From Oscillospiraceae bacterium (lineage in GTDB: Bacteria > Bacillota > Clostridia > Oscillospirales > Oscillospiraceae): 64,000 nt of DNA. The stretch spans positions 921 to 64,920 of the forward strand of contig JAFQQV010000060.1 of NCBI GenBank assembly GCA_017410425.1, given 5' to 3'. A model generated the notes under the pieces. The model was not told where the DNA came from. It searched no databases and saw nothing but the letters and a program-made list of their open reading frames with translations. This document shows positions 1 to 12,748 of the stretch, one piece after another. The position numbers and the translations under genes were made by a program. Each line of letters opens with the position of its first letter. Position 1 is the stretch's first letter.

Positions 1-680
1 ATGGCGGAAATATAATCTGCATGAAAAAACGCCTGGAGTGGCGCGGCATAAAAGCAGAAATTACAAATCTAAAAATTGGTGAGAATAGTTCTCTTGCAGA
101 TTTTGACTTGTTCTTCATGGGCGGTGGCCAGGACTTTGAACAGGAGGTGCTGCTTGCTGATCTGCACAGAGGAAAAGACAAAAGTATTATCTCTGCCATT
201 GAGGATGGAAAAACATTCCTCACAGTATGCGGCGGATATCAGATGCTGGGCTATTATTATGAAAATCAGGCAGGAGTCCGTTGCGAATTTTTGGGTGCAA
301 TAGATTTTTATACAAAGAGCAAACCAGGCAGATTGATTGGAAACTATTCTTTCCGTTGCTACCAGATTTCGGGCGGAAGTACTGTGCTTGGCTTTGAAAA
401 CCATAGCGGAAGAACTTACCTTGGCCCGGATGCATCTCCGCTTGGAAAAGTTATAAATGGATTTGGTAATAACGGAGAGGATAAGACCGAGGGCGTAAGA
501 TATAAAAATGTGTTTGGCACCTACAGCCATGGCCCGGTATTACCGAAAAATCCGGAATTGTGCGATTTTATACTGAAAACAGCCCTTGAGCATAAATACG
601 GTAAGTGCCAGCTTTCAAGCCTTGACGATGATGCAGAGCACCGTGCTCATGCGGCTATCGCCAGAAAGATGATGTATTAA
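1..680 (+). CDS. gatD: Lipid II isoglutaminyl synthase glutaminase subunit GatD (CobQ-type glutamine amidotransferase); 5' end lies off the window
   Basis: ORF 21..680, but the frame stays open back to base 3 (..GNIIC-MKKRLEWRG), so the real start is upstream. Carries the GATase nucleophile elbow TVCGGYQMLG plus GFENHSGRTY and GTYSHGPVLPKN motifs typical of MurT-partner GatD. Confidence 0.75.
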   Translation, partial: GGNIICMKKRLEWRGIKAEITNLKIGENSSLADFDLFFMGGGQDFEQEVLLADLHRGKDKSIISAIEDGKTFLTVCGGYQMLGYYYENQAGVRCEFLGAIDFYTKSKPGRLIGNYSFRCYQISGGSTVLGFENHSGRTYLGPDASPLGKVINGFGNNGEDKTEGVRYKNVFGTYSHGPVLPKNPELCDFILKTALEHKYGKCQLSSLDDDAEHRAHAAIARKMMY

Positions 681-698
681 GCATATAAATTACATAAG

Positions 699-737
699 AA
701 AAGCCCTATCCAAAAGGATAGGGCTTTTCAATTTGGT
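699..737. repeat. Distal copy of a 39 bp perfect direct repeat (aaaagccctatccaaaaggatagggcttttcaatttggt); putative att site of the ssrA islet
   Basis: Read directly: 699..737 is identical to 3179..3217. The flanks diverge upstream; downstream, after a 1-nt offset, both copies continue with ggag. Confidence 0.9.
702..729 (+). terminator. Rho-independent terminator hairpin after gatD (lies inside the repeat)
   Basis: agccctatcc-aaaa-ggatagggct stem followed by TTTT; A-run on the other side. Confidence 0.65.
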
Positions 738-807
738 CGGAGTGTAATTATGGGGTTTAAATAAACCCAGTAAAATCAATGGTTTACAGGTTTTTAGTTT
801 GAGGGGA

Positions 808-2592
808 TTAGTATAGTAAATATTTGTCTAACAAATTAGATATCGATTCATAGGTGTTATATGTATATTTTATTTCAATCAGCTTAAAACCGAGTTTTTT
901 TGCAAAGCTATGTTTTCTGCGGTCGTGCTCTACTTGTCTCTTGAATTGAATTTCACCACCAAAAAAATCACATGCTTGAAAATGTTGAATACCTTGATAT
1001 TCGATAAGAATGTATGTGTTTTCCCCGGTTGGGATAGCAAAATCATATGATAGCAAACCATTGCGCGTGCCATACAATGAATCAAAAGTTTTTTGATAAA
1101 AATACTTTATTTTATGATTATCTAAATATTTTCTAACAAGTTGTTCACCGTTGGATTGCTCTATGTATGGACAGCCAGCGTTGTTATATGTGCGGTCAAT
1201 GATTGACGCTTTCCATTCAAAAGTATAGTGTTCTCCTGTTTTAGGGTTAGTGTATGGTAACAGCCACCAAACCTTCTTATTGCTTCCCGCTGTAACATTT
1301 GTCGGTTTCAAACTTTGATTTTTTTCAAAATGCCATTCTTTTGCGAGTTCCGGATGAGTAGTTGACAAATCATTAAAGCCCTCTAAAACCGCTTTTCCGG
1401 AAATATATGGACATCCTGTGTTATCAGCCGTTCGATATGCAATTCTAGCTTGCCACTCAAAATCAAAGTGCTTTCCCGTTTTAGGATCATCATATGGCAA
1501 ATACCACCAAACGTTGTTCATACTATATTCGAGGACGTGGCTTGGTAATAGTTTTCCATTTTTCCGTGGATGCCATTGAGCTGCTAAACTAGGTCTTCTT
1601 GTTAATAAATCGTTGAAACCAGGCCATGCTGCGGCGTTATTTAGAAAAGGACAGTCTGCAGATTTGTTTGCCCTGTTATTGATGTTGGCTTCCCATTCAA
1701 AGTCAAAATGTTTTCCTGAAATTGGGTCATCATACGGTAACATCCACCAAACTTTTTTATTCATACCAGCTGAGACATCACTTGGGGTTAGACCGTGGTT
1801 TTTGGTGGGATGCCATTCTTTGGCTAGCTCTGGATGGGTTGTTGCTAAATCATTATATCCTATGAATAATGCTTTTCCTGAAATGTAAGGACAATTCCGC
1901 CCCTCGCTTCTATGTACAATGGTATCCTCCCATTCAAAATCAAAGTGTTTTCCTGTTTTTGAGTCATCATAGGGAAGGTACCACCAGACTTTTTTTCTGC
2001 TTCCTGCTGAAAAATTTATTGGCTTTAGCTTTCCGTTCTTAGTAGGATGCCACTGCTTAGCAAGTTCGGGATGAGTTGTTTCCAAGTCGTTAAAACCATT
2101 CCATACTTCTTTTCCTACTAGGTATGGACAAGTGTGTCCGTTGGTACGATAATAAACTTTAGCTTCCCATTCGAAATCAAAGTGCTTTCCAGTTGTTGGG
2201 TCATCATATGGCAACAACCACCATACTTTTTTTGCACTTTTTGATGTAACATCAGATGGTTGCAAAGTTCCGTTTTTGGTAGGGTGCCATTGCTTGGATA
2301 CTTCAGGAAATCGGGTTTGAAGATCATTAAACCCACGCCAAAGTGCTCTGCCAGAAAGAAACGGACAATTCTGGTTATGCTTTGTTCTATTTATTACTGC
2401 CATTTCCCATTCAAAATCAAAATGATTTCCTGTGATAGGATCGTCATAAGGGAGATACCACCAGACTTTTTTTCTACTTCCAGAAGTAATTTCTGTTGGT
2501 TTAAGATTCCCGTTTTTAGTAGGATGCCACTCTTTTATCAATTCTGGGTTTGTAGTGGACAAATCATTGAAACCGATCTCAATCCTAGTCAT
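808..2592 (-). CDS. Six tandem degenerate treble-clef (DUF4379-like 'probable zinc-ribbon') repeats fused to a C-terminal Vsr/DUF559-like PD-(D/E)xK nuclease-fold domain
   Basis: ORF 808..2655. Preferred start is ATG 2592 (MTRIEIGFNDL), with AGGAGA at 2605-2610. Six 74-80 aa repeats follow the pattern (F/Y)NDLxTxxPxLxxxWHPxKNxxLxP..KKVWWxLPYDDPxTGKHFDFEWE..CP(Y/F). The C-terminal ~115 aa carry GEQLVRKYL..LSYDF..ILIEYQGIQH..HDRRK..KLIEIKY. Confidence 0.8.
   Translation of the reverse strand: MTRIEIGFNDLSTTNPELIKEWHPTKNGNLKPTEITSGSRKKVWWYLPYDDPITGNHFDFEWEMAVINRTKHNQNCPFLSGRALWRGFNDLQTRFPEVSKQWHPTKNGTLQPSDVTSKSAKKVWWLLPYDDPTTGKHFDFEWEAKVYYRTNGHTCPYLVGKEVWNGFNDLETTHPELAKQWHPTKNGKLKPINFSAGSRKKVWWYLPYDDSKTGKHFDFEWEDTIVHRSEGRNCPYISGKALFIGYNDLATTHPELAKEWHPTKNHGLTPSDVSAGMNKKVWWMLPYDDPISGKHFDFEWEANINNRANKSADCPFLNNAAAWPGFNDLLTRRPSLAAQWHPRKNGKLLPSHVLEYSMNNVWWYLPYDDPKTGKHFDFEWQARIAYRTADNTGCPYISGKAVLEGFNDLSTTHPELAKEWHFEKNQSLKPTNVTAGSNKKVWWLLPYTNPKTGEHYTFEWKASIIDRTYNNAGCPYIEQSNGEQLVRKYLDNHKIKYFYQKTFDSLYGTRNGLLSYDFAIPTGENTYILIEYQGIQHFQACDFFGGEIQFKRQVEHDRRKHSFAKKLGFKLIEIKYTYNTYESISNLLDKYLLY
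1156..2571 (-). repeat. Coding tandem repeat array, six units of about 237 bp
   Basis: Protein-level periodicity of 80, 79, 79, 80, 80 and 74 aa, counted from the ORF translation. Confidence 0.85.
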
Positions 2593-2691
2593 AAAAATAA
2601 TGGTTCTCCTTATTGGTAGAGCATAAATTTTCCTTATTGCAAGAAACAACAACATCAGCTTTCAAAATATTATCTAATGTTATATTTAATA

Positions 2692-2719
2692 ATTATAACA
2701 AAACACGACAAATCGTCAA
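2692..2719 (-). promoter_or_regulatory. Sigma-A-type promoter for the repeat-nuclease gene
   Basis: Minus strand reads TTGACG (2719-2714), a 16 nt spacer, then TATAAT (2697-2692), about 100 nt upstream of ATG 2592. Confidence 0.5.
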
Positions 2720-2837
2720 CAGAATCAATTAGATGAACAAAAAGATGTTTTTTGTTCGACATAGAGTAAAATTGAAAGTCTGTTCGTAGAAATAAAGTGT
2801 TAGTTGTTTTTTCTTTGATAACAATAATGTAACACAG

Positions 2838-3155
2838 TGGGGAATCGACCTGCGCTGCGGCGCAGGCCGGGTCGCGGCTCTGATATCCGCTTTGCCACAA
2901 TTACCATTTCTGCTTCACTTTCGTTCGCCGAAATGGTGTGGCTGCAGAAATTGCCCGTCGGCTCAATCTGCCACTGGCAGTGCCAACAGGCAATTCCCCC
3001 GGCACGTCATTCACTACCGCTCGTGTTTGAGCAGACGAGATGGGAGGGAATCGCTTGCATTCTTTTTGCAAACAAAAAGAATATATGTATTCACCGGTGT
3101 GGGCACCGGTTCATGCAAGCCCCACCGGGGCTTGCGGACATGATTCGATTCCCCA
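2838..3155. ncRNA. Candidate structured RNA or DNA element of unknown family (strand undetermined)
   Basis: A GC-rich block inside the AT-rich islet. An 11 bp closing stem pairs tggggaatcga (2838-2848) with tcgattcccca (3145-3155). At least seven internal hairpins: 2849-2866, 2904-2936, 2949-2995 (inner 2968-2980), 3020-3039, 3059-3082, 3093-3110 and 3115-3135. The only ORFs here have improbable composition. Confidence 0.4.
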
Positions 3156-3178
3156 GCACCCCTGTCTATGCCAAATCA

Positions 3179-3217
3179 AAAAGCCCTATCCAAAAGGATA
3201 GGGCTTTTCAATTTGGT
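3179..3217. repeat. ssrA-proximal copy of the 39 bp direct repeat
   Basis: Identical to 699..737. It covers the last 4 nt of tmRNA (ACCA) and the ssrA terminator. Confidence 0.9.
3182..3209 (-). terminator. ssrA rho-independent terminator
   Basis: Same hairpin as at 702-729. On the minus strand it is followed by TTTTTGATTT. Confidence 0.7.
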
Positions 3218-3562
3218 GGAGATGGGGGGAGTCGAACCCCCGTCCGAAAGCACTTTAACAGAAACTTCTCCGGGCGCAGACGGTTATTTACATTCCCTCA
3301 TCCAGGCGGGAATCGTCACCCTCAAGGAATCAGTAGCTTCATGATGCGTGGAACGCTCAAAGCTTTGCGAACTCACGTTCACCACTAATCGACGCCCCAT
3401 CCCGGGCCGTGGTACTCCCGGGTGGAACGCTCGCTATTATGCAGCGAGGAGAACAGACTTGTTGTTGTTCTTTAATTTATAAGTTTTACCCATTTTAAGG
3501 ATGTTAGGCGCATCCGCCCGCTATTCCTGCCTCCACACCCCCGTCGAAACCTTTACATCCCC
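3214..3562 (-). ncRNA. ssrA: tmRNA (transfer-messenger RNA)
   Basis: The minus strand starts GGGGATGTAAAGGTTTCGACGGGGG and ends GGGGGTTCGACTCCCCCCATCTCCACCA. The internal tag frame GGT AAA ACT TAT AAA TTA AAG AAC AAC AAC AAG TCT GTT CTC CTC GCT GCA TAA TAG gives (A)GKTYKLKNNNKSVLLAA. smpB lies upstream on the same strand. Confidence 0.93.
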
Positions 3563-3633
3563 ATATAGCCCACCGCGAACTGCGGTGGGGGATAGATAAG
3601 TCAGGACGCTGATATATCAGCAGTGTATTGAAA

Positions 3634-4152
3634 TCAGACCTTCTCAGGTTCAGGATACTCCATGCCGAAAGTCTCAACAGTGACTTTCTTCATGACCTGG
3701 GGAGTACGGGGCTTGTCGTTGTAGTCGGTGCGGACGCGGCAAATCTGGTCCACAACTTCGATACCCTCAATGACCTTGCCGAAGGCTGCATACTGACCGT
3801 CCAGGTGGGGGGCATCCTCATGCATTACAAAGAACTGGCTGCCGGCGCTGTTGGGCATCATGGAACGTGCCATGGACAGGACGCCGCGCTCATGCAGCAG
3901 GGGGTTGTTGAAGCCGTTCATCTTGAACTCGCCGCGGATGGAGTATTCGGGACCGCCCATGCCGTTGCCGAGGGGATCGCCGCCCTGAATCATGAAGCCG
4001 GGGATAACGCGGTGGAAAATCAGACCATCGTAAAAGCCCTTGGAAACAAGGGAGACAAAGTTGTTGACGGTGTTGGGAGCAAGCTCGGGATAGAGCTCAG
4101 CCTTCATGATGCTGCCATCTTCCATTTCAAAGGTAACAATAGGATTGCTCAT
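3634..4152 (-). CDS. ppiB: Peptidyl-prolyl cis-trans isomerase, cyclophilin type
   Basis: FHRVIPGFMIQGGDP and SMARS..NSAGSQFF cyclophilin signatures; 172 aa. Confidence 0.9.
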   Translation of the reverse strand: MSNPIVTFEMEDGSIMKAELYPELAPNTVNNFVSLVSKGFYDGLIFHRVIPGFMIQGGDPLGNGMGGPEYSIRGEFKMNGFNNPLLHERGVLSMARSMMPNSAGSQFFVMHEDAPHLDGQYAAFGKVIEGIEVVDQICRVRTDYNDKPRTPQVMKKVTVETFGMEYPEPEKV

Positions 4153-4628
4153 CAGTAGTTCCTCTCTTTCATAGCTCTGTCGATATCGCGCTTGGACTGG
4201 CGGTCAGCCTCGCTGTCCCGCTTGTCATGCAGCTTTTTGCCCTTGCACAGGCCCAGCTCAACCTTTACACGGCTGTCCTTGAAGTACAGGGACAGGGGGA
4301 TGAGAGCTACGCCGTCCTGCATGACGCGGGCGTGAAGCTTAAGAATCTCACGCTTGTGCATCAGCAAACGTCTGGGGCGCACAGGGTCTTTGTTGAAGAT
4401 ATTGCCGTGCTCATAGGGGCTTATGTGCATGCTGCGCAGGAAAAGCTCACCATCCTTAACGGTGCAGAAGCTGTCCTTCATGTTCACCTGGCCGGCCCTG
4501 ATGGACTTGACCTCGGTGCCTGCAAGCTCAATACCGGCTTCATAGCGCTCCAGCACGAAATATTCATGAAAAGCTTTGCGGTTTTTTGCTATTTCTTTTG
4601 TTCCGCTCTGTTTGGCCACCGGTCTCAC
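4152..4628 (-). CDS. smpB: SsrA-binding protein SmpB
   Basis: KNRKAFHEYFVLERYEAGIELAGTEVKSIR and the C-terminal basic tail are typical of SmpB. Its stop overlaps the ppiB start. Confidence 0.92.
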   Translation of the reverse strand: MRPVAKQSGTKEIAKNRKAFHEYFVLERYEAGIELAGTEVKSIRAGQVNMKDSFCTVKDGELFLRSMHISPYEHGNIFNKDPVRPRRLLMHKREILKLHARVMQDGVALIPLSLYFKDSRVKVELGLCKGKKLHDKRDSEADRQSKRDIDRAMKERNY

Positions 4629-4894
4629 TTCCTTTGCCTGCCTGCATTATTTGCCGCACCTTGGCACAGCGGGATTCATTATATCACAGCCATGACCATA
4701 ATGAAAGAATAATTTGTAAAATCTTGGCCGGAGGCTGCCAGACGGGGCTGCAAGAGGGGGGTGCGGACTATATTTCAAAAATAATTTAATTCTACTTACA
4801 AAAATGGTGGAAATCCTCAAAAGCCTGTGTTATACTAAATTACCGAATTATGTAAATCAAATTGCTTATATAGATTGGAACGGAGTGTTGCTCT

Positions 4895-5437
4895 ATGGAA
4901 CTTGTTGAAACCAAGGTATCAAGCGAACTTAAGTTCAGCGGAAAGATTCTTAAACTCACTGTTGATGATGTGCTGCTGGCTGACGGAAGCCCTGCAAAGA
5001 GGGAAGTGATCCATCATCCCGGCGGTGTGGGCATTCTGCCTGTCGATGATGAGGGTATGTGCTACATGGTGCGCCAGTTCCGTTATCCCACTGAGCAGGC
5101 TGTGCTGGAGATCCCTGCCGGAAAGCTGGAGTGGGGTGAAGACCACTATGCCTGCGCTGTTCGTGAGCTGTCTGAGGAGACGGGTTTCAGCGCTGATAAT
5201 TATGTGTATCTGGGCTATTTTTATCCCACTCCCGCCTATGATACCGAGCGTATCCATGTCTACCTTGCCACCGGCCTGCATGCAGGTGAGCGCCATCTGG
5301 ACGAGGGCGAATTTCTGAACATTGAGAAGATCAGCCTTGATGAACTTCACGCAATGGCTATGGAAGGCTCCATCATCGATGCAAAGACTCTTGTTGCTGT
5401 GCTGAAAGCACGCCTGTATCTTGAGGCTAAGAAATAA
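4895..5437 (+). CDS. NUDIX hydrolase (ADP-ribose pyrophosphatase-like)
   Basis: Nudix box GKLEWGEDHYACAVRELSEETGF. Confidence 0.8.
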   Translation: MELVETKVSSELKFSGKILKLTVDDVLLADGSPAKREVIHHPGGVGILPVDDEGMCYMVRQFRYPTEQAVLEIPAGKLEWGEDHYACAVRELSEETGFSADNYVYLGYFYPTPAYDTERIHVYLATGLHAGERHLDEGEFLNIEKISLDELHAMAMEGSIIDAKTLVAVLKARLYLEAKK

Positions 5438-5527
5438 AACAGTTGCCATTTATACATATATGTGGTAACATTTTAACTTGGTGAGTCCTGTTCAGGCCTT
5501 GCCTTAAGTCATTGAAAGGTGTTTATC

Positions 5528-6832
5528 GTGGAAAAATATGTTATAAACGGCGGCAAGAAACTGCAGGGTGAGGTAGAAATCAGCGGTGCAAAGAACGCAG
5601 CTGTTGCCATTATCCCCGCAGCTCTCCTGGTTGACGGAGTCTGCTGCATTGAAAATATGCCTCAGATAAGCGATACTGATATGCTCCTTACCATCCTGAA
5701 GGATCTGGGCGCAAAGGTCAGACTTATCAATAAATCCACTGTTGAGATTGACTGCACTGACGTGCATAATGGTGATGCTCCATACGATCTTATGCGTAAG
5801 ATCAGAGCATCCTACTACCTTATCGGTGCAATGCTGGGCCGCTTTGGTGCAGCCAAGACCACTATGCCCGGCGGCTGCAATTTTGGCGTTCGTCCCATTG
5901 ACCAGCATATCAAGGGCATGACCGCGCTGGGCGCAGAAGTGGAAGTCAAAAACGGCTTTGTCTATGCTGAGACCCGCGACGGCAAGCTCCATGGCACCCG
6001 TATTTATCTTGACAAGGTTTCCGTTGGTGCAACCATGAATATCATAATTGCTGCTGCTCTTGCACAGGGCCGCACCATTATTGAGAATGCTGCACGCGAG
6101 CCCCATATTGTTGACCTTGCAAATTTCCTCAACTCCATGGGTGCAGATATTCGCGGCGCCGGCACTGATACTGTTAAGATCAACGGCGTTGAAAAGCTGC
6201 ATGGCGGTACTTATGCCATTATCCCTGACCAGATTGAAGCCGGCACCTATATGGTTGCAGCAGCAGCCACCGGCGGTGAGGTTCTGGTCAAGAACGTTAT
6301 CCCCCGTCATCTGGAGTGCATCAGCGCAAAGCTGCGTGAGACAGGTACCATTGTCCAGGAATACGGCGATTCTGTCTACATCAAGGGTGCAAGCAATCTG
6401 CGCCGCACCAATGTGAAGACCCTGCCTTACCCCGGCTTCCCCACGGATATGCAGCCCCCTATGTGCGTGCTGCTTGCCTTGGCAGAGGGCACCTCTGTTA
6501 TGACTGAGGGCGTTTATGATGACCGTTTCAAGTACGTTAACGAACTGCGCAAGATGGGCGCTGAGGTAACTGTGGACGGCAGAGTTGCAGTTATTGAGGG
6601 CGGCAAGCCTCTCACCGGTGCTCCTGTCCATGCCTGTGACCTGCGCGCAGGCGCTGCCATGGTAACTGCGGGCCTTTGCGCCAGCGGCACCACCGTGGTT
6701 GAGGATATTCACTTTATTGAGCGCGGCTATGAAAACTTTGTGGGCAAGCTCAGGGCTCTCGGCGCTGATATCAGCCTCGTGAACTTCCCTGAAGAGCCTG
6801 ACAATGCTGATAAAGTAATTGCTATAGGATAA
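5528..6832 (+). CDS. murA: UDP-N-acetylglucosamine 1-carboxyvinyltransferase (paralogue 1)
   Basis: [10 protein letters not shown] and the active-site loop [14 protein letters not shown]. The ORF opens at GTG 5519, but GTG 5528 sits behind GAAAGGTG and gives MEKYVINGG. Confidence 0.9.
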
Positions 6833-6835
6833 AAA

Positions 6836-7621
6836 ATGAAGATTGCTGTTTTTGCCAGTGGTTCCGGCGGCAACTGTATGTTGCTTTCCCATAAGGATTC
6901 TCATATTTTGATCGACGCCGGAATCTCAATGCGCAGGATTGAAACATCTTTGCGCAGCCAGGGCCTTACAGTTAATGACATCGGCGGAGTGCTCATAACA
7001 CATGAGCACTCCGATCATATTTCAGGGCTTAAAATGCTTCTCAAGCACCATGGGGTTGAGGTTTTTGCACCCCGCACCGTGGCGGCAAGACTTCGCGGCA
7101 TGCTTCCTGAAATCGAGGATCATCTTACTGTTCTGCCTGTGGGCATAGAATTTAAGCTTGGAGAATTTACTGTCAGGGCCTTCCACACACCCCATGACAC
7201 GGATGAGAGCGTGGGTTACAGGATTGAGGGAGGCGGCAGCTTTGCCCTTGCAACGGACATGGGCTGCGTTACTGATGAGGTGCTCTCCGGGCTCCTGGGC
7301 GCTAATACTGTACTAATAGAGTCAAATCACGATGTTGCAATGCTCTGTGACGGGCCTTATCCGGTGCAGCTTAAGCGACGTATTCTGTCAAACCACGGTC
7401 ATCTTTCCAATGTGGACTGTGCAAGACTTGTAAGGCACCTTGCCGACAGGGGAACCCGCCGCGTTATATTGGGGCATCTGAGCAAGGAAAACAATCGCCC
7501 CGGTATTGCCATGGCGGAAAACGGCCATGCGCTTATGGGCAGCGGAGCAGAGCTTTTCTGCGCGCCGGTGTTCGGCTGTCTGGAACTTGAAACTGAGGAG
7601 GATTTGCAATGCTTGCTGTAA
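6836..7621 (+). CDS. MBL-fold metallo-hydrolase (YycJ-like)
   Basis: THEHSDH (HxHxDH) motif; 261 aa. Confidence 0.8.
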   Translation: MKIAVFASGSGGNCMLLSHKDSHILIDAGISMRRIETSLRSQGLTVNDIGGVLITHEHSDHISGLKMLLKHHGVEVFAPRTVAARLRGMLPEIEDHLTVLPVGIEFKLGEFTVRAFHTPHDTDESVGYRIEGGGSFALATDMGCVTDEVLSGLLGANTVLIESNHDVAMLCDGPYPVQLKRRILSNHGHLSNVDCARLVRHLADRGTRRVILGHLSKENNRPGIAMAENGHALMGSGAELFCAPVFGCLELETEEDLQCLL

Positions 7622-8091
7622 AGTTTATCTGCGTTGGTCGCATGAGAGAAAAGTTTTATATCGAGGCTTTTTCTGAATATACAAAGCGGCTGCAGAGCCT
7701 TTGCAAGTTTGAAATTGTTGAGCCTGCGGAGCAGCGCCTGAGCGAGAATCCCTCCGACAAGGAGATAAAATCCGCACTTGATAGGGAGGCTCAGGACATC
7801 ATGAAGGCCATTCCCAACGATGCTTATGTGGTTGCCATGTGCGTTGAGGGCAAGCAGATGCCCAGCGAAGGTATGGGCGAGCTTATCGCTGCCAGGGAGA
7901 ACTCAGGCAAGCCCAGACTTTGCTTCGTTATCGGCGGCAGCTTTGGCCTTGCCGACAGTGTAAAGGCCAGAGCAGACATGAAGCTCAGTATGTCCCAAAT
8001 GACATTTCCCCATCATCTGGCCCGTGTTATGCTCATAGAGCAGCTGTACAGAGGCTTCAAAATTAACGAAGGCTCCAGATACCACAAGTAA
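7609..8091 (+). CDS. rlmH: 23S rRNA (pseudouridine1915-N3)-methyltransferase
   Basis: About 160 aa, SPOUT family, with KFICVGRMREKF..YTKRL and a C-terminal knot region; typical RlmH size and sequence. Confidence 0.88.
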   Translation: MLAVKFICVGRMREKFYIEAFSEYTKRLQSLCKFEIVEPAEQRLSENPSDKEIKSALDREAQDIMKAIPNDAYVVAMCVEGKQMPSEGMGELIAARENSGKPRLCFVIGGSFGLADSVKARADMKLSMSQMTFPHHLARVMLIEQLYRGFKINEGSRYHK

Positions 8092-8184
8092 AATTTCGTG
8101 CATTTTGCCTTGAAAGTGGAAGTAACTGGTGCTATACTAGCAATGATATTATGCACAATAGCGCAGACTGGAGGCGAGGCAATT

Positions 8185-8496
8185 ATGCAGAACGAATTTA
8201 ACTGGGGAAGCAAGTTGCCCGGTGAACTGTTCGAACGCTGGCCCAAGGATGAAAACGGCAATCCCGAGGAGCCCAAGCTTTTGGCAACACTTGCAAATAA
8301 CAATATGTTTGATGAGCTTACAGTCAATATGCTTGAAGCCTATGGTATACCCTGCCTTAAGGTCTATCCCGGTTACGGTGGATTCGGCAAGGTAATGCTT
8401 GGTATGAGTGGTGAAGGAACTGAGATTTATGTTCCATCGAGCCTTCACGCTGATGCTCTTGCTCTCTGCACGGAGGGCGATTTTGACCTGTTTTAA
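8185..8496 (+). CDS. Small hypothetical protein (DUF2007-like fold suspected)
   Basis: ORF 8098..8496. ATG 8185 follows GGAGG. The family call is only by resemblance (MLEAYGIPC..IYVP..ADALAL). Confidence 0.4.
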   Translation: MQNEFNWGSKLPGELFERWPKDENGNPEEPKLLATLANNNMFDELTVNMLEAYGIPCLKVYPGYGGFGKVMLGMSGEGTEIYVPSSLHADALALCTEGDFDLF

Positions 8497-8582
8497 TCAG
8501 TTTATTTTTGCCGCGGAGAATAACTCCGCGGACTGGCAATAGATCACATCCCGGAATGAAAATACGAAAGGAAGTTATTATT

Positions 8583-10313
8583 ATGACCAGAAGCTATAAG
8601 GAAGAGTATCAGCATTGGCTGGAGAGCCCCGCACTGTCTGAGCAGGAGTGGGCAGAGCTGGATGCAATCAAGGACGATGAAAAGGAAATCGAAAGCCGTT
8701 TCTTCGCTCCTCTGGAGTTCGGCACCGCCGGTCTTCGCGGCACCATGAAGCTGGGCCTGAACCACATGAACATCCACATTATCCGCCACGCTACTCAGGC
8801 TTTTGCAAATGTTATCTGCGCTGAGGGTGAGGAAGCCAAGAAGAAGGGCATCGCTGTTGCATACGACTGCCGTCTCAACGGTGCTGACTTTGCTCGTGAG
8901 GCTGCCTGCGTCATGGCTGCAAACGGTATCCATGTCCGCCTCTTCGATGCACTGCGTCCCACTCCCGAGCTGAGCTTCGCTGTCATCCACTATGGCTGCG
9001 CTGCCGGTATCAATATTACCGCCAGCCACAACCCCAAGGAATACAACGGCTACAAGGTTTACTGGTCTGATGGTGCTCAGCTTCCTCCCGAGCCTGCAGC
9101 AGAAATCGCAAAGCAGATGGAAGCTATCGACATCTTCACCGGCTTCAAGTCCATGGACTTCGACAAGGCAATGGCTGAAGGTCTGATCGAAATGCTGGGC
9201 GAAGAGACTGACGAGGCATTCCTTGCAAACGTTATGACTCAGGCTATCGACAAGGAGACTGTTGCAGAGGTCGCAGATGACTTCCGTATCGTCTTCACTC
9301 CCTTCCACGGCACCGGTCACAAGCTGGTTCCCGAAGCTCTGCGCCGCCTGGGTATCAAGCACATCTATCCCGTTGAGGAGCAGATGGTTATTGACGGCAA
9401 TTTCCCCACCGTTGTCAGCCCCAACCCCGAAAATCCCGAAGGCTTCTATCTGGCAGTTGATCTGGCCAAGAAGGTTGACTCTGACCTGATCATCGGAACC
9501 GACCCCGACGCTGACCGTATCGGCACCATGGTCCGCACCGGCGATACTTACACCACCATCACCGGCAACCAGATGGGCGTTCTGCTTCTGGACTATGTTA
9601 TCAAGGCAAAGAAGGCTACCGGCACTCTGCCCGAGAATCCCGGCGCAATGAGCTCCATCGTTTCCACCGGCATGGCAAGAGTAGTTGCCGAGAAGAACGG
9701 TGTCCACTTTGAGGACACCCTCACCGGCTTCAAGTTCATGGCTGAGCGCATCGCCAGCTGGGAAGCTGCCAACAGCTACAAGTGCATCTTTGCATTTGAA
9801 GAGAGCTACGGCTACCTGATGGGCGACTACGTTCGCGATAAGGACGCTGTCACCGCTTCCATGGTTGTTGCCGAGATGGCTGCACATTACCACAAGAAGG
9901 GCATGACCCTTATGGATGCAATGAACGCTTTGTACGAAGAGTACGGCTGCTTCAAGGAGAAGACCCTGAACCTGGTTATGCCCGGTCTGGACGGCCTGCA
10001 GAAGATGAAGAAGCTTATGGACGATCTTCGCGCCAATCCTCCCAAGGAAATCGGTGGTCAGGAAGTTCTGCGCCTGAGAGACTACAAGGACAGCAGCATC
10101 TGGGTTGCAGGTCTCGGCAAGGTTGGCACTACTCCCTTTGGCGGCTCCAACGTTCTCTACTTCGAACTGGCTGACGGCTCCAACTTCATCGTAAGACCCT
10201 CCGGCACCGAGCCCAAGGTCAAGGTTTACCTGCTTGTCCGCGGCGAAAGCATGGAGCAGTGCGATGAGCGTATGGCCAAGTACATGGAGTTTGCAGATAC
10301 TCTCAAGCAGTAA
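8583..10313 (+). CDS. Phosphoglucomutase/phosphomannomutase (alpha-D-phosphohexomutase family)
   Basis: Active-site TASHNPKEYNGYKVY and metal loop GTDPDADR. ATG 8583 follows GAAAGGAAG. Confidence 0.9.
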   Translation: MTRSYKEEYQHWLESPALSEQEWAELDAIKDDEKEIESRFFAPLEFGTAGLRGTMKLGLNHMNIHIIRHATQAFANVICAEGEEAKKKGIAVAYDCRLNGADFAREAACVMAANGIHVRLFDALRPTPELSFAVIHYGCAAGINITASHNPKEYNGYKVYWSDGAQLPPEPAAEIAKQMEAIDIFTGFKSMDFDKAMAEGLIEMLGEETDEAFLANVMTQAIDKETVAEVADDFRIVFTPFHGTGHKLVPEALRRLGIKHIYPVEEQMVIDGNFPTVVSPNPENPEGFYLAVDLAKKVDSDLIIGTDPDADRIGTMVRTGDTYTTITGNQMGVLLLDYVIKAKKATGTLPENPGAMSSIVSTGMARVVAEKNGVHFEDTLTGFKFMAERIASWEAANSYKCIFAFEESYGYLMGDYVRDKDAVTASMVVAEMAAHYHKKGMTLMDAMNALYEEYGCFKEKTLNLVMPGLDGLQKMKKLMDDLRANPPKEIGGQEVLRLRDYKDSSIWVAGLGKVGTTPFGGSNVLYFELADGSNFIVRPSGTEPKVKVYLLVRGESMEQCDERMAKYMEFADTLKQ

Positions 10314-10316
10314 GAA

Positions 10317-10859
10317 ATGAAAATACTTCTCGAGCTATTCATTGCTTTTGCGCGAGTTGGAGTAATGACCTTTGGTGGCGGTTATGCCATGCTTCCCATA
10401 ATTGAACGGGAAATTGTGGATAAGCGCCACTGGGCCGAGCTCGATGAAATAATGGACTATTACGCCGTGGGTCAATGTACCCCCGGCGTAATCGCTGTGA
10501 ACACAGCTACTTTCATCGGCTATAAGCTTGCAGGCGTTCCCGGCGGCATTGCTGCCACCATTGGCGTGGTTTTCCCCTCGCTGATAATTATCACTGTCAT
10601 TGCAAGCGTGCTCACCGCTTTTGCTGAGGTTCCTGCTGTAAAGAGTGCCTTTGCAGGAATCCGCGTCTGCGTTTGTGTTCTCATTTTCAACTCCGTAATG
10701 AAGCTTTATAAAAAGGCAATTGTGGATAAGGCCAGCCTTGCCTTGTTTATCATTGTATTCATCCTTGCTGTGCTGCTGGATGTGTCACCGGTGGTATTTG
10801 TTATCATTTGTGCCCTTGGCGGTATTTCCCTTACAAGACTGGGGGTGCGTGGTAAATGA
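10317..10859 (+). CDS. Chromate transporter family protein (half-size, first of a pair)
   Basis: VGVMTFGGGYAMLPIIE.. CHR-family signature; 180 aa, multi-TM. Confidence 0.85.
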   Translation: MKILLELFIAFARVGVMTFGGGYAMLPIIEREIVDKRHWAELDEIMDYYAVGQCTPGVIAVNTATFIGYKLAGVPGGIAATIGVVFPSLIIITVIASVLTAFAEVPAVKSAFAGIRVCVCVLIFNSVMKLYKKAIVDKASLALFIIVFILAVLLDVSPVVFVIICALGGISLTRLGVRGK

Positions 10860-11434
10860 TGCTTTATCTGCGCCTCTATTTTGAGTTTTTTAAAACCGGC
10901 CTTTTTTCTGTTGGCGGTGGTATGGCAACTTTGCCTTTCCTCTATGCCATTAGCGATAAAACCGGCTGGTTCAGCCATGAGCTTCTGGCAGACATGGTGG
11001 CGGTTTCTGAGTCTACTCCTGGCCCTATCGGTGTCAACATGGCCACCTATGTAGGCTATGTTACTGGTGGTATTCCCGGGGCATTGATTGCTACGGCAGG
11101 ACTTGTAACTCCATGCTGTATTATCATCCTGCTCATTGCAAAGGCTCTCAAGGCTTTCCGCCAGAACAAGTATGTGGATGCTGCATTCTATGGCCTGCAG
11201 CCCTGCTCTGTCGGCCTTATCGCTGCAGCGGGCATGCTGGTGCTGAAGATTTCCCTTTTTGATTTCGGCCTGTTTGGTGAGACAGGAAAGCTTATTGACC
11301 TTTTTAACTTCAAAGCTATTGTCCTTGCGGCTATCCTGCTTATTTGCACGAGGTATGTAAAAAAACTCAAAGGGCTTCATCCAATTGTGTTTATCGCAGC
11401 CTCTGCCTTGGTTGGCATAGTGTTTGCTTTCTAG
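10856..11434 (+). CDS. Chromate transporter family protein (half-size, second of a pair)
   Basis: TGLFSVGGGMATLPFL.. signature. Its start overlaps the upstream stop. Confidence 0.85.
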   Translation: MMLYLRLYFEFFKTGLFSVGGGMATLPFLYAISDKTGWFSHELLADMVAVSESTPGPIGVNMATYVGYVTGGIPGALIATAGLVTPCCIIILLIAKALKAFRQNKYVDAAFYGLQPCSVGLIAAAGMLVLKISLFDFGLFGETGKLIDLFNFKAIVLAAILLICTRYVKKLKGLHPIVFIAASALVGIVFAF

Positions 11435-12390
11435 AACAGGGACACAAAATACATCAGAATAAATGCGATTGTCGCACTCAGAAGGCGGCCTGCCAGATGC
11501 AGGCTGCCTTTTATTTTGCTTTCGGATAGGACAGCAAGGGTCTGAAAATGTACGCTGAGCCCACCCCAACTGAGTATGGCAGCGGCAAGAGCCATATTTA
11601 ACGGTTTTGCCTCGAGCCCTGACATGCAGCCTGCCGCGCTGCCAAGCTCCAGAATACCGGTGAAAAGTGCTTTGGCAAACTGTGGGGGCTGACCGGTAAG
11701 ACTACTGAACATTCCGCAGAGTTTAGATAAAACATCGCCAGAATCCATAAGCGAAAGCAGCACGGAAAAGCTTATGACAAAAGCACAGACATTGATAATT
11801 GAGTTTGTGGCCTGCTTTATGGATGCAACGACAGCCTCTGCTGTCTTTGTCTCATCAAGCCTGTGTGGCTGTACTGTGTTGGAATATTCGTTTGTTCTGA
11901 AAAACAAAGCTGCTATCAGAGCTGATACAATGTGCACCGCATAGAGCTCAAGCCCTGTCTTAACAGAGCCGAATATACTGCTGCCCATGACGCCGATTAT
12001 AAAAGCCGGGCCTGAATTGTTGCAGAAGGCTATAAGCCGTTCTCCCTCACCTGTGTTTATCAAGCCCTCTTTTTCCATGTCCGCAATATAGGAAGCTCCA
12101 GCCGGGTAACCGCCCACAAATCCCATCACCAGCGCTGAGGCACCTGCTGGGCTTATACCGTAAAGCCGGCAGAAAAAAGGGGAGATAATTCTTCCAAGAC
12201 TAGCCGGCAAACCAAGCTTTGTCATGAAAGCAGAGAGCACAAAGAATGGAAAAAGCGAGGGGATTATCATCCTTCCGCAGAGCAGCAGCGCATCAAAGCA
12301 CGAGGCCTTGACTTTGTCTGCGGAGAAAACCAGCAGTATCAGCAAGGAAACTGCGAATATAATTTTTATGTTGTTGGTGTATTTTTTCAT
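11431..12390 (-). CDS. ylbJ: Sporulation integral membrane protein YlbJ (nucleoside-recognition-domain family)
   Basis: Multi-TM, with LLCGRMIIPSLFPFFVLS.. ATG 12390 follows GGAGG at 12399-12403. Confidence 0.7.
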   Translation of the reverse strand: MKKYTNNIKIIFAVSLLILLVFSADKVKASCFDALLLCGRMIIPSLFPFFVLSAFMTKLGLPASLGRIISPFFCRLYGISPAGASALVMGFVGGYPAGASYIADMEKEGLINTGEGERLIAFCNNSGPAFIIGVMGSSIFGSVKTGLELYAVHIVSALIAALFFRTNEYSNTVQPHRLDETKTAEAVVASIKQATNSIINVCAFVISFSVLLSLMDSGDVLSKLCGMFSSLTGQPPQFAKALFTGILELGSAAGCMSGLEAKPLNMALAAAILSWGGLSVHFQTLAVLSESKIKGSLHLAGRLLSATIAFILMYFVSLF

Positions 12391-12475
12391 TTTCCAGCCT
12401 CCTTGTCCGTGTATCAAGCTATGAGCCTGAGCATAGGTTTATACAAAACATTAAGCGGAAAATGAGGTGCTGCCT

Positions 12476-12748
12476 TTGAAAAAAATCAGGGAATTACCTT
12501 TTGAACTGGCTGAAAAACTGGAGCTGCCTGGAGAAGTGCTTCCGGGCGCGGGAAGCATATGTATCACTGGCGGGAGAAACGCATTGGTTGAGGGGCACCG
12601 GGGAATACTTGAGTATTCTGAGGATAGAATTGTGCTGGCTTTACGGCGGGGAAAGATTACATTATCAGGCGCGGGAATGCAGCTCAGGGCCATGAATGGG
12701 GGAGAGCTTCTTGTCAGCGGCAGGATACAGAATGTGGAGTGGGGCTGA
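12476..12748 (+). CDS. yqfC: Sporulation protein YqfC
   Basis: About 90 aa with ..LPGEV..ITGGRNALVEGHRGILEYSEDRI.. resembling Bacillus YqfC, followed by yqfD. The start could be TTG 12476 or GTG 12467. Confidence 0.8.
   Translation: MKKIRELPFELAEKLELPGEVLPGAGSICITGGRNALVEGHRGILEYSEDRIVLALRRGKITLSGAGMQLRAMNGGELLVSGRIQNVEWG

Follow-up and report, generated by a model that had tools for sequence, protein, structure and literature searches.

A six-unit array of ligand-depleted DUF4379 repeats joined to an EDxHD-type nuclease domain in an islet at ssrA of an Oscillospiraceae bacterium

The window analyzed here, a stretch of 64,000 nucleotides (nt) from an Oscillospiraceae bacterium (assembly GCA_017410425.1, contig JAFQQV010000060.1, positions 921 to 64,920), carries close to its transfer-messenger RNA (tmRNA) gene ssrA a reading frame for a protein of 594 amino acids (aa), in which six tandem repeats related to zinc-binding modules precede a putative nuclease domain. 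The question raised by this locus is what such a protein is made for, and whether its repeats still hold a metal. A first-pass annotation, made from the sequence alone, had described the repeats as zinc ribbons that have lost their zinc ligands, fused to a Vsr/DUF559-like nuclease, and had compared the whole to a modular nucleic-acid reader coupled to a cutter. We favor, with a little better than even confidence, a free-standing, selfish, and site-specific DNA endonuclease, similar to homing endonucleases, from a family that combines treble-clef arrays with EDxHD nuclease domains; in this member a hydrophobic core and a hairpin extension would have taken over from the zinc site of each array unit.

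The six repeat units and the fate of their zinc site

The likely start of the gene is the ATG at position 2592, which gives an intact product; the same start is used in NCBI record MBQ2960724.1, identical to the product and named 'zinc-ribbon domain-containing protein [Oscillospiraceae bacterium]'. The 594-aa protein has no match in NCBIfam. In Pfam, six stretches of it match the family DUF4379 (PF14311, 'probable treble clef zinc finger') with E 4.7e-69 and 228.9 bits, against a gathering cut-off of 24.5, which confirms the array; the units also agree with the consensus that the first-pass annotation had written for them. They are 79–80 aa long, with pairwise identities of 51–66% at the protein level, and repeat in the DNA with a period of 237–240 nt and 64–75% identity; with such values the repeats are therefore old. 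Recent duplication and assembly artefact were considered for their origin and are ruled out by the same identities, together with the identity of the open reading frame (ORF) across several independent samples. Seven of the 594 residues are cysteines, one in each unit (Table 1) and one in the tail. The final 10 aa of unit 6 overlap the start of the nuclease profile, and no further copy of the repeat unit or of the nuclease domain is present in the 64-kb window.

The AlphaFold2 (AF2) model of units 2–3, with a predicted local distance difference test score (pLDDT) of 97.3 and a predicted template modeling score (pTM) of 0.83, contains a long hairpin at positions 37–45/52–60, composed of two nine-residue strands, KVWWLLPYD and HFDFEWEAK, and the loop DPTTGK. 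As modeled, it implies that the geometry between units would be fixed. When it is searched with Foldseek, the sole matches are solved DUF4379 proteins from assembly intermediates of the trypanosome mitoribosome (6sga_Fd, 7pua_Fd, and 6yxx_E2), with E 2.6e-4, a probability of 1.00, and a template modeling (TM) score of 0.58 on the target for 6sga_Fd; the model of unit 6 with the nuclease domain finds the same chain, mt-SAF33, with E 5.2e-4 and a TM score of 0.64 on the target. A search of the PDB with the single sequence returned only mt-SAF33, at E 0.22. Canonical DUF4379 proteins, including this mt-SAF33 of Trypanosoma brucei (6sga chain Fd), are matched by the window units in family score, which is above threshold, and in fold (TM 0.58–0.64). 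They differ at the ligand positions, which in the window read L, F, C, and L/I, and in the inserted PYDDPxTGKHFD hairpin.

A canonical unit reads WW.C..(C or GH).W ... R ... CP.C and presents four ligands in two knuckles. We mapped these positions with three alignments, one made by HMMER with the solved mt-SAF33, one by hmmalign with the 998 units of the 120 closest relatives, and one by MAFFT with unit pairs that included canonical units. All three set a Leu (column 41) on the first canonical Cys, the retained Cys (column 70) on the third, and Leu or Ile (column 73) on the fourth. The second ligand, Cys or His, falls on the second Phe of FDFEW, with the canonical GH being set by MAFFT on the DF that precedes EW. 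The window units are without the four-ligand set of DUF4379: what all six retain is the third ligand alone, the Cys of CP. In the model, L41 pairs with F54 at the former knuckle, and a 12-residue β-hairpin extension, PYDDPxTGKHFD, takes the place of the first knuckle. The alignments and the modeled hairpin agree here with the first-pass annotation, which had seen an inserted loop in place of the first knuckle and a single Cys left in the second. The conserved His of KHF (H51) is positioned at the hairpin tip, opposite D44 and on the other face from L41/F54; these pairings are those of the DSSP register, not of coordinates. That this His might be the retained canonical ligand is ruled out by the MAFFT alignment and by the hairpin register, which puts the canonical positions at L41/F54. 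Because three of the four ligand positions are hydrophobic (L, F, and L/I), a small hydrophobic core probably stands in place of the zinc site in each unit, and the units would be independent of metal.

The same depletion prevails among the 998 units of the relatives: both outer Cys are absent from 917 of them, with L/Y/F and L/I as replacements, and kept in 34. Despite the loss of its three partners, the third Cys is retained in 891 of the 917 depleted units, a persistence that favors an alternative in which the units still bind metal through a new ligand set, made of the Cys at column 70, His51 and/or His17, and an Asp or Glu of the hairpin. Such rewired sites would bear on the metal question only. 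H17 and H51 are each found in about 86–87% of units, and together with C70 in 697 of 917 (76%) as well as in every one of the six window units; moreover, the absences of H17 and H51 tend weakly to coincide (odds ratio 2.5, Fisher p 8.5e-4). We nevertheless consider a rewired site unlikely. At least one of the three residues is missing in 24% of units, and H17 is also frequent in canonical four-ligand units (24 of 34), hence not a compensating change. In the model H51 faces away from the place where the old site lay, and hydrophobic substitutions at the old ligand positions are what is expected of a core replacing a metal. The association between H17 and H51 may itself come from unit subtypes of common ancestry.

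No description of the ligand-depleted unit was found in the DUF4379 passages, titles, and abstracts consulted. A 'recurrent disruption of Zn-ribbons' was reportedly described by Makarova, Ponomarev, and Koonin in 2001 for ribosomal proteins of which forms with and without Cys are known. There, as apparently here, the fold is kept despite the loss of the metal ligands; those proteins are single-domain and linked to zinc economy, whereas in the present family the loss is accompanied by an insertion and by amplification to 5–13 units in a nuclease. The depleted unit would offer a clear and datable case of a zinc site supplanted by a hydrophobic core together with an insertion, after which the unit was multiplied into arrays.

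The nuclease domain and its phage relatives

The 120-aa C-terminal tail contains E...SYDF...IEYQGIQH...EHDRRK...LIEIKY, the motif string being exactly as first described. Seven of its residues do not vary across 19 relatives: E483, D517, E531, G534, H537, D557, and K560. The composite E-D-x-H-D motif defined in PMC3239194 is present, with E483, D517, Q533 as x, H537, and D557 being invariant or nearly so in both alignments of relatives. Comparison by hhalign of an 84-sequence alignment with full-length I-Bth0305I, the EDxHD prototype (PDB 3R3P), gave a probability of 72.7% and E 3.2e-5 over the catalytic domain (residues 167–247); it pairs the motif with E170, D196, N208 (with Q), and D222 of I-Bth0305I, while H213 is one residue out of register. 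Profile searches of the PDB gave weak matches, to T7 endonuclease I (E 0.33) and I-Bth0305I (3r3p, E 0.43).

The window domain itself has no match to Pfam DUF559 (PF04480), DUF2726 (PF10881), or Vsr at E ≤ 10; among the 19 relatives, DUF2726 is found in seven (best 3.7e-6) and DUF559 in two (0.0018). The nuclease is better described as EDxHD-type than as DUF559. The AF2 model of unit 6 with the tail (pLDDT 91.5) was searched with Foldseek against the PDB, which yielded, besides mt-SAF33, the PD-(D/E)xK enzymes TnsA (8.6e-4), MspJI, the R2 endonuclease domain, McrC, and Exo5. A library of predicted viral structures gave 115 matches at E ≤ 1e-3, with names such as 'Group I intron protein', 'Homing endonuclease', 'Group I intron-associated VSR homing endonuclease', and giant-virus 'restriction endonuclease'. 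Motif and model support the assignment of the tail as a PD-(D/E)xK domain with intact catalytic residues, probably of the Vsr superfamily. Of the first assignment, the Vsr part thus appears to hold better than the DUF559 part. The profile and structure comparisons that had been proposed for both domains lead from the repeats to solved DUF4379 proteins and from the nuclease to PD-(D/E)xK enzymes, with I-Bth0305I found by hhalign.

The window protein and I-Bth0305I share the homologous C-terminal catalytic domain, with the E, D, x, H, and D positions conserved, and the same order of an N-terminal DNA-binding region (a predicted one, for the window protein) followed by the nuclease. They differ in how DNA would be bound, by two NUMOD2/helix-turn-helix motifs in I-Bth0305I and solely by DUF4379 units in the N-terminal region here (PMC3239194). 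Between its His and the final Asp the window protein has about 11 additional residues, and the His is out of register by one. I-Bth0305I, unlike the window gene, resides in a recA group I intron (PMC3239194).

The closest annotated relatives come from phages. By tblastn, relatives of the nuclease domain were found in 317 phage records. ORF13 of Staphylococcus phage Stau2 (L037, locus 703–3727), annotated 'group I intron protein' and 49% identical to it over 121 aa, lies between two coding sequences (CDSs) that are both annotated as terminase large subunit, and the same split-terminase layout is observed in Bacillus phage vB_BceH_LY2 (L038, locus 776–3810), where gp184, annotated 'homing endonuclease', is 37% identical. 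Both intervening ORFs carry DUF4379/CapR modules and the same nuclease domain. Genes split in this manner are what homing endonucleases of intervening sequences classically leave behind; Rfam at gathering threshold found no group I intron at the two terL loci. PHROGs matches, which cover the last unit and the tail, carry the names 'HNH endonuclease' (1e-28) and, for PHROG 9084, 'homing endonuclease' (4e-26). The Herelleviridae proteins resemble the window protein in their nuclease domain and in the DUF4379/CapR type of their N-terminal modules; they are unlike it in their size of 245–313 aa, in having one or two weakly matching modules, and in interrupting an essential phage gene. The earlier idea of a reader joined to a cutter gains from these relatives, which are annotated as phage homing endonucleases and some of which split terminase genes.

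Relatives, variant architectures, and the scope of the family

A word-indexed protein search gave at least 8,000 candidates, 7,993 of them significant, and an exhaustive HMMER search with the nuclease profile, clustered at 50% identity, gave 41,889 clusters at E ≤ 1e-3 and 22,982 at E ≤ 1e-10. Sampled members carry DUF4379, CapR, or DUF723 upstream of the nuclease. The architecture is known and very common, more so than the first-pass annotation implied. Passages of PMC12350094 (Nucleic Acids Research 2025) describe homing endonuclease genes in phage group I and II introns in which arrays of CapR/DUF4379/DUF723-like domains are joined to an EDxHD/Vsr-like nuclease; there the architecture is termed 'a large unrecognized outgroup' with thousands of UniProt matches. 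With its array of small domains and its C-terminal EDxHD/Vsr-like domain, the window protein belongs, as far as those passages define it, to this outgroup. The likeness includes several small modules of treble-clef type followed by a nuclease of about 100–120 aa, and the relatives of the window's nuclease domain carry the same three module families. As compared with what the passages report, the window protein has six units of 80 aa instead of three to five of about 60 aa, its units are without three of the four ligands and bear the 12-residue extension, and its gene is free-standing in a bacterial chromosome islet, not intronic.

Arrays of 5–13 units occur in the relatives. The depleted units are concentrated in metagenome-assembled genomes (MAGs) of Lachnospiraceae, Oscillospiraceae, and other Clostridia from rumen and gut, whereas relatives from Nitrospiraceae, Opitutales, and Peribacillus carry canonical units. 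In four relatives (L008, L016, L018, and L034), the array proteins end in tails of about 45 aa instead of the nuclease; these tails match I-HmuI_NUMOD-like (PF22083, E 7e-6 to 5e-3, just below threshold) and NUMOD1. The I-HmuI-NUMOD-like and NUMOD1 modules are DNA-binding modules typical of homing endonucleases. Adjacent paralogous DUF4379-array genes were observed at two loci, one on an IMG/VR contig and one in a Firmicutes MAG (L033, 3229–5190 and 5977–7830; L006, 2550–3977 and 3877–6063).

A census of homologue contexts, as suggested by the first-pass annotation, gave mobile, accessory, and phage settings. The expected company of tRNA or tmRNA genes was not borne out: only one of the 20 genome loci has one within 6 kb, a tRNA-Gln about 1.2 kb upstream of the match, and on these loci a tie of the gene family to such sites is rejected. 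The neighbors are unrelated accessory genes, for instance those for Fic, MUG113/T5orf172, ADP-ribosylglycohydrolase, and IS605 TnpB. Such company would also suit a single-gene defense or restriction-like nuclease, kept for host protection, whose array recognizes phage or plasmid DNA that the PD-(D/E)xK domain then degrades. Tandem paralogues and a variable number of units would fit a diversifying specificity, and 'restriction endonuclease' or 'restriction enzyme' is the name given to some structural relatives in giant viruses and phages; a passage of PMC5513546 describes four DUF4379 domains with a restriction-endonuclease domain in Marseilleviridae. We regard this possibility as decidedly unlikely. 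PADLOC-DB 2.0 gave no significant match (best HEAT_CxxC_PD-DEXK, E 0.023, 12 bits), the neighboring genes are wholly different between loci, and the closest annotated nuclease relatives are encoded in intervening sequences of phage genes.

A more specific proposal, which seems to us quite improbable, is that the depleted units act as a metal-independent modular scaffold for reading DNA, each covering a fixed number of base pairs through variable surface positions, with array length (5–13) and unit order setting the target as in TALE or zinc-finger arrays. If such modular reading were true, the Clostridia of gut and rumen would be a source of natural 'array + nuclease' enzymes by the thousand, whose specificities could be read. 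Should the units fold without zinc and contact DNA module by module, nature would have supplied a novel array scaffold for recognizing specific DNA sequences, one that comes with a nuclease attached; the scaffold abounds in the Lachnospiraceae and Oscillospiraceae MAGs of these Clostridia. As for annotation, thousands of entries carry the name 'zinc-ribbon domain-containing protein' but probably do not bind zinc and are more than simple ribbons; they would be better called EDxHD-type, homing-endonuclease-like nucleases. The window gene itself is one more member of a very large and only recently noticed family.

The islet at ssrA and the mobile cassette

The first-pass annotation had taken the gene for the sole ORF, with its own good promoter, of an att-flanked islet at ssrA. 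The islet exists as a segment of 2.44 kb and low GC content (38% GC in the gene versus 48% in the window) between two copies of a repeat that is perfect over 39 nt and extends to 44 nt with one indel, overlapping the end of ssrA by about 4–8 nt. The five other ORFs searched between the repeats have no Pfam match, which leaves the nuclease gene as the only one with a family assignment, and its promoter is near-consensus. What needs correction is the extent of the mobile unit. In two samples (L004 and L041), positions 756–2748 of the window recur at 93% nucleotide identity and with sharp edges in unrelated flanks, with a different terminator-like hairpin downstream, GTACAGCGGTCTTG...CAAGACCGCTGTAC. 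This second-context copy has no ssrA, no 39-nt repeat, and no structured spacer, and comparison of the cassette ends revealed no terminal inverted or direct repeats; the promoter is kept in L004. Since the cassette is 93% identical in two contexts, promoter and gene moved together, and the mobile unit appears to be the 2.0-kb promoter-plus-gene cassette, not the whole islet, which also holds a structured segment of 419 nt. The contigs of cluster members are about 2–2.8 kb long, and those identical to the window end near the distal repeat copy.

Integrase-less, att-flanked island remnants at tRNA and tmRNA genes are known as CIME-like elements. The islet resembles them in its 39-nt perfect repeat over the 3' end of ssrA and in the foreign GC content between the copies. 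It is unlike them in being only 2.44 kb long, with no integrase gene or remnant among its ORFs by Pfam, and in that its gene also occurs elsewhere as a cassette devoid of the repeat. The empty site, as reconstructed, would join the ssrA 3' end, one repeat copy, and the amidotransferase-side flank (...CTCCACCAAATTGAAAAGCCCTATCCTTTTGGATAGGGCTTTTCTTATGTAATT...). A scan of Joint Genome Institute (JGI) metagenomes for the 38-nt repeat, in empty or occupied sites, gave 0 matches, and an exact-protein look-up of the neighboring peptidyl-prolyl isomerase, aimed at islet-free strains, returned the same two contigs only.

These data are consistent with the following mechanism. Together, the six 80-aa units would make up a stiff tandem array with a long stretch of DNA as its target; each unit would keep the DUF4379 fold, with the first zinc knuckle converted to the 12-residue β-hairpin extension. 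The C-terminal domain would cut DNA with Mg2+ by means of E483, D517, H537, and D557, plus K560, and the nuclease may dimerize, as I-Bth0305I does. The gene would travel with its own promoter as the 2.0-kb cassette, here inside an integrase-less ssrA islet.

Several observations weigh against this reading. No intron or intein surrounds the gene, Rfam having found only tmRNA in the islet and in the whole window. The 39-nt repeat has the look of an integrase product and not of a homing product, yet no integrase is present. No empty target site was found in the above scans, so that homing is inferred. Arrays of 480–1000 aa are much larger than the known DNA-binding regions of homing endonucleases, about one-third of the close relatives have no nuclease domain and end instead in a canonical zinc unit, and homing endonuclease genes seldom occur as tandem paralogues such as those of the two loci. 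The top 50 Foldseek matches in the PDB include neither Vsr nor 3r3p. Finally, all DUF4379 domains with a solved structure are parts of ribosome-assembly complexes, so that RNA is a possible ligand. As for the defense nuclease considered above, a gene standing alone with its own promoter would suit it, and against it there is no methyltransferase, immunity, or partner gene among the islet ORFs.

The structured spacer between ssrA and the gene may bear on the nature of the ligand. Its RNA has a predicted fold of −167 kcal/mol (z = −7.1 versus shuffles) with several long perfect hairpins; it has no Rfam match at E ≤ 1 and no blastn match in phages or plasmids. A gene beside ssrA and this segment could encode a domesticated RNA-binding or -processing factor, the array binding structured RNA, possibly the region by ssrA, and the nuclease processing it. 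The solved DUF4379 structures, all ribosome-assembly factors of the trypanosome mitoribosome, would agree with such a role, and a Vsr-like fold has been recruited to RNA metabolism according to the title of PMC11879112. We hold this explanation very improbable, given that the second-context copy is found without ssrA and without the structured segment, that the gene has a foreign GC content and a patchy distribution, that its closest nuclease relatives are DNA homing endonucleases, and that no tRNA or tmRNA lies within 6 kb at 19 of the 20 genome loci. A homing-endonuclease-like DNA nuclease is the reading that we retain.

Table 1. Features of the nuclease gene and of the islet at ssrA, in window coordinates.
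Feature	Position	Strand	Remarks
ORF	808..2655	-	one long reading frame; likely start at the ATG at 2592
CDS, 594 aa + stop	808..2592	-	six DUF4379-derived units, then EDxHD/Vsr-like nuclease domain
AGGAG, Shine-Dalgarno-like	2606..2610	-	13 nt upstream of the ATG at 2592 (read from sequence)
Sigma-70-type promoter	2692..2719	-	TTGACG + 16-nt spacer + extended TG + TATAAT; 11/12 matches
Repeat unit 1	2335..2574	-	aa 7-86; ligand-equivalent positions L47, F60, C76, L79
Repeat unit 2	2098..2334	-	aa 87-165; sole Cys C155
Repeat unit 3	1861..2097	-	aa 166-244; sole Cys C234
Repeat unit 4	1621..1860	-	aa 245-324; sole Cys C314
Repeat unit 5	1381..1620	-	aa 325-404; sole Cys C394
Repeat unit 6	1141..1380	-	aa 405-484; PYTNP in place of PYDDP; sole Cys C474
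Predicted PD-(D/E)xK nuclease domain, 120 aa	811..1170	-	aa 475-594, C-terminal; E483, D517, E531/Q533, H537, D557, K560
Promoter+gene cassette, 2.0 kb	756..2748	-	93% nt identity in unrelated flanks, L004 and L041 (two samples)
Direct repeat copy 1	3179..3217	-	last 4 nt of ssrA (ACCA) + AATTG + terminator-like 14-bp hairpin
Direct repeat copy 2	699..737	-	100% identical over 39 nt; abuts 3' end of convergent GATase_3 gene
tmRNA gene ssrA, full length	3214..3562	-	islet begins at ssrA 3' end
Structured spacer, 419 nt, about 49% GC	2760..3178	-	between ssrA terminator and nuclease promoter; outside the mobile cassette

The flanks of the islet (positions 1–12600) consist of ordinary core genes, including those for a GATase_3 (PF07685) amidotransferase (21–680), peptidyl-prolyl isomerase, SmpB, NUDIX, and an EPSP_synthase-family protein (PF00275), among others. 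In a 97%-identical strain (L042), about 113 nt of the spacer, corresponding to window positions 2884–2996, are missing. In the same strain one hairpin carries a compensatory change, CCGGTG/CACCGG being replaced by CCAGTG/CACTGG.

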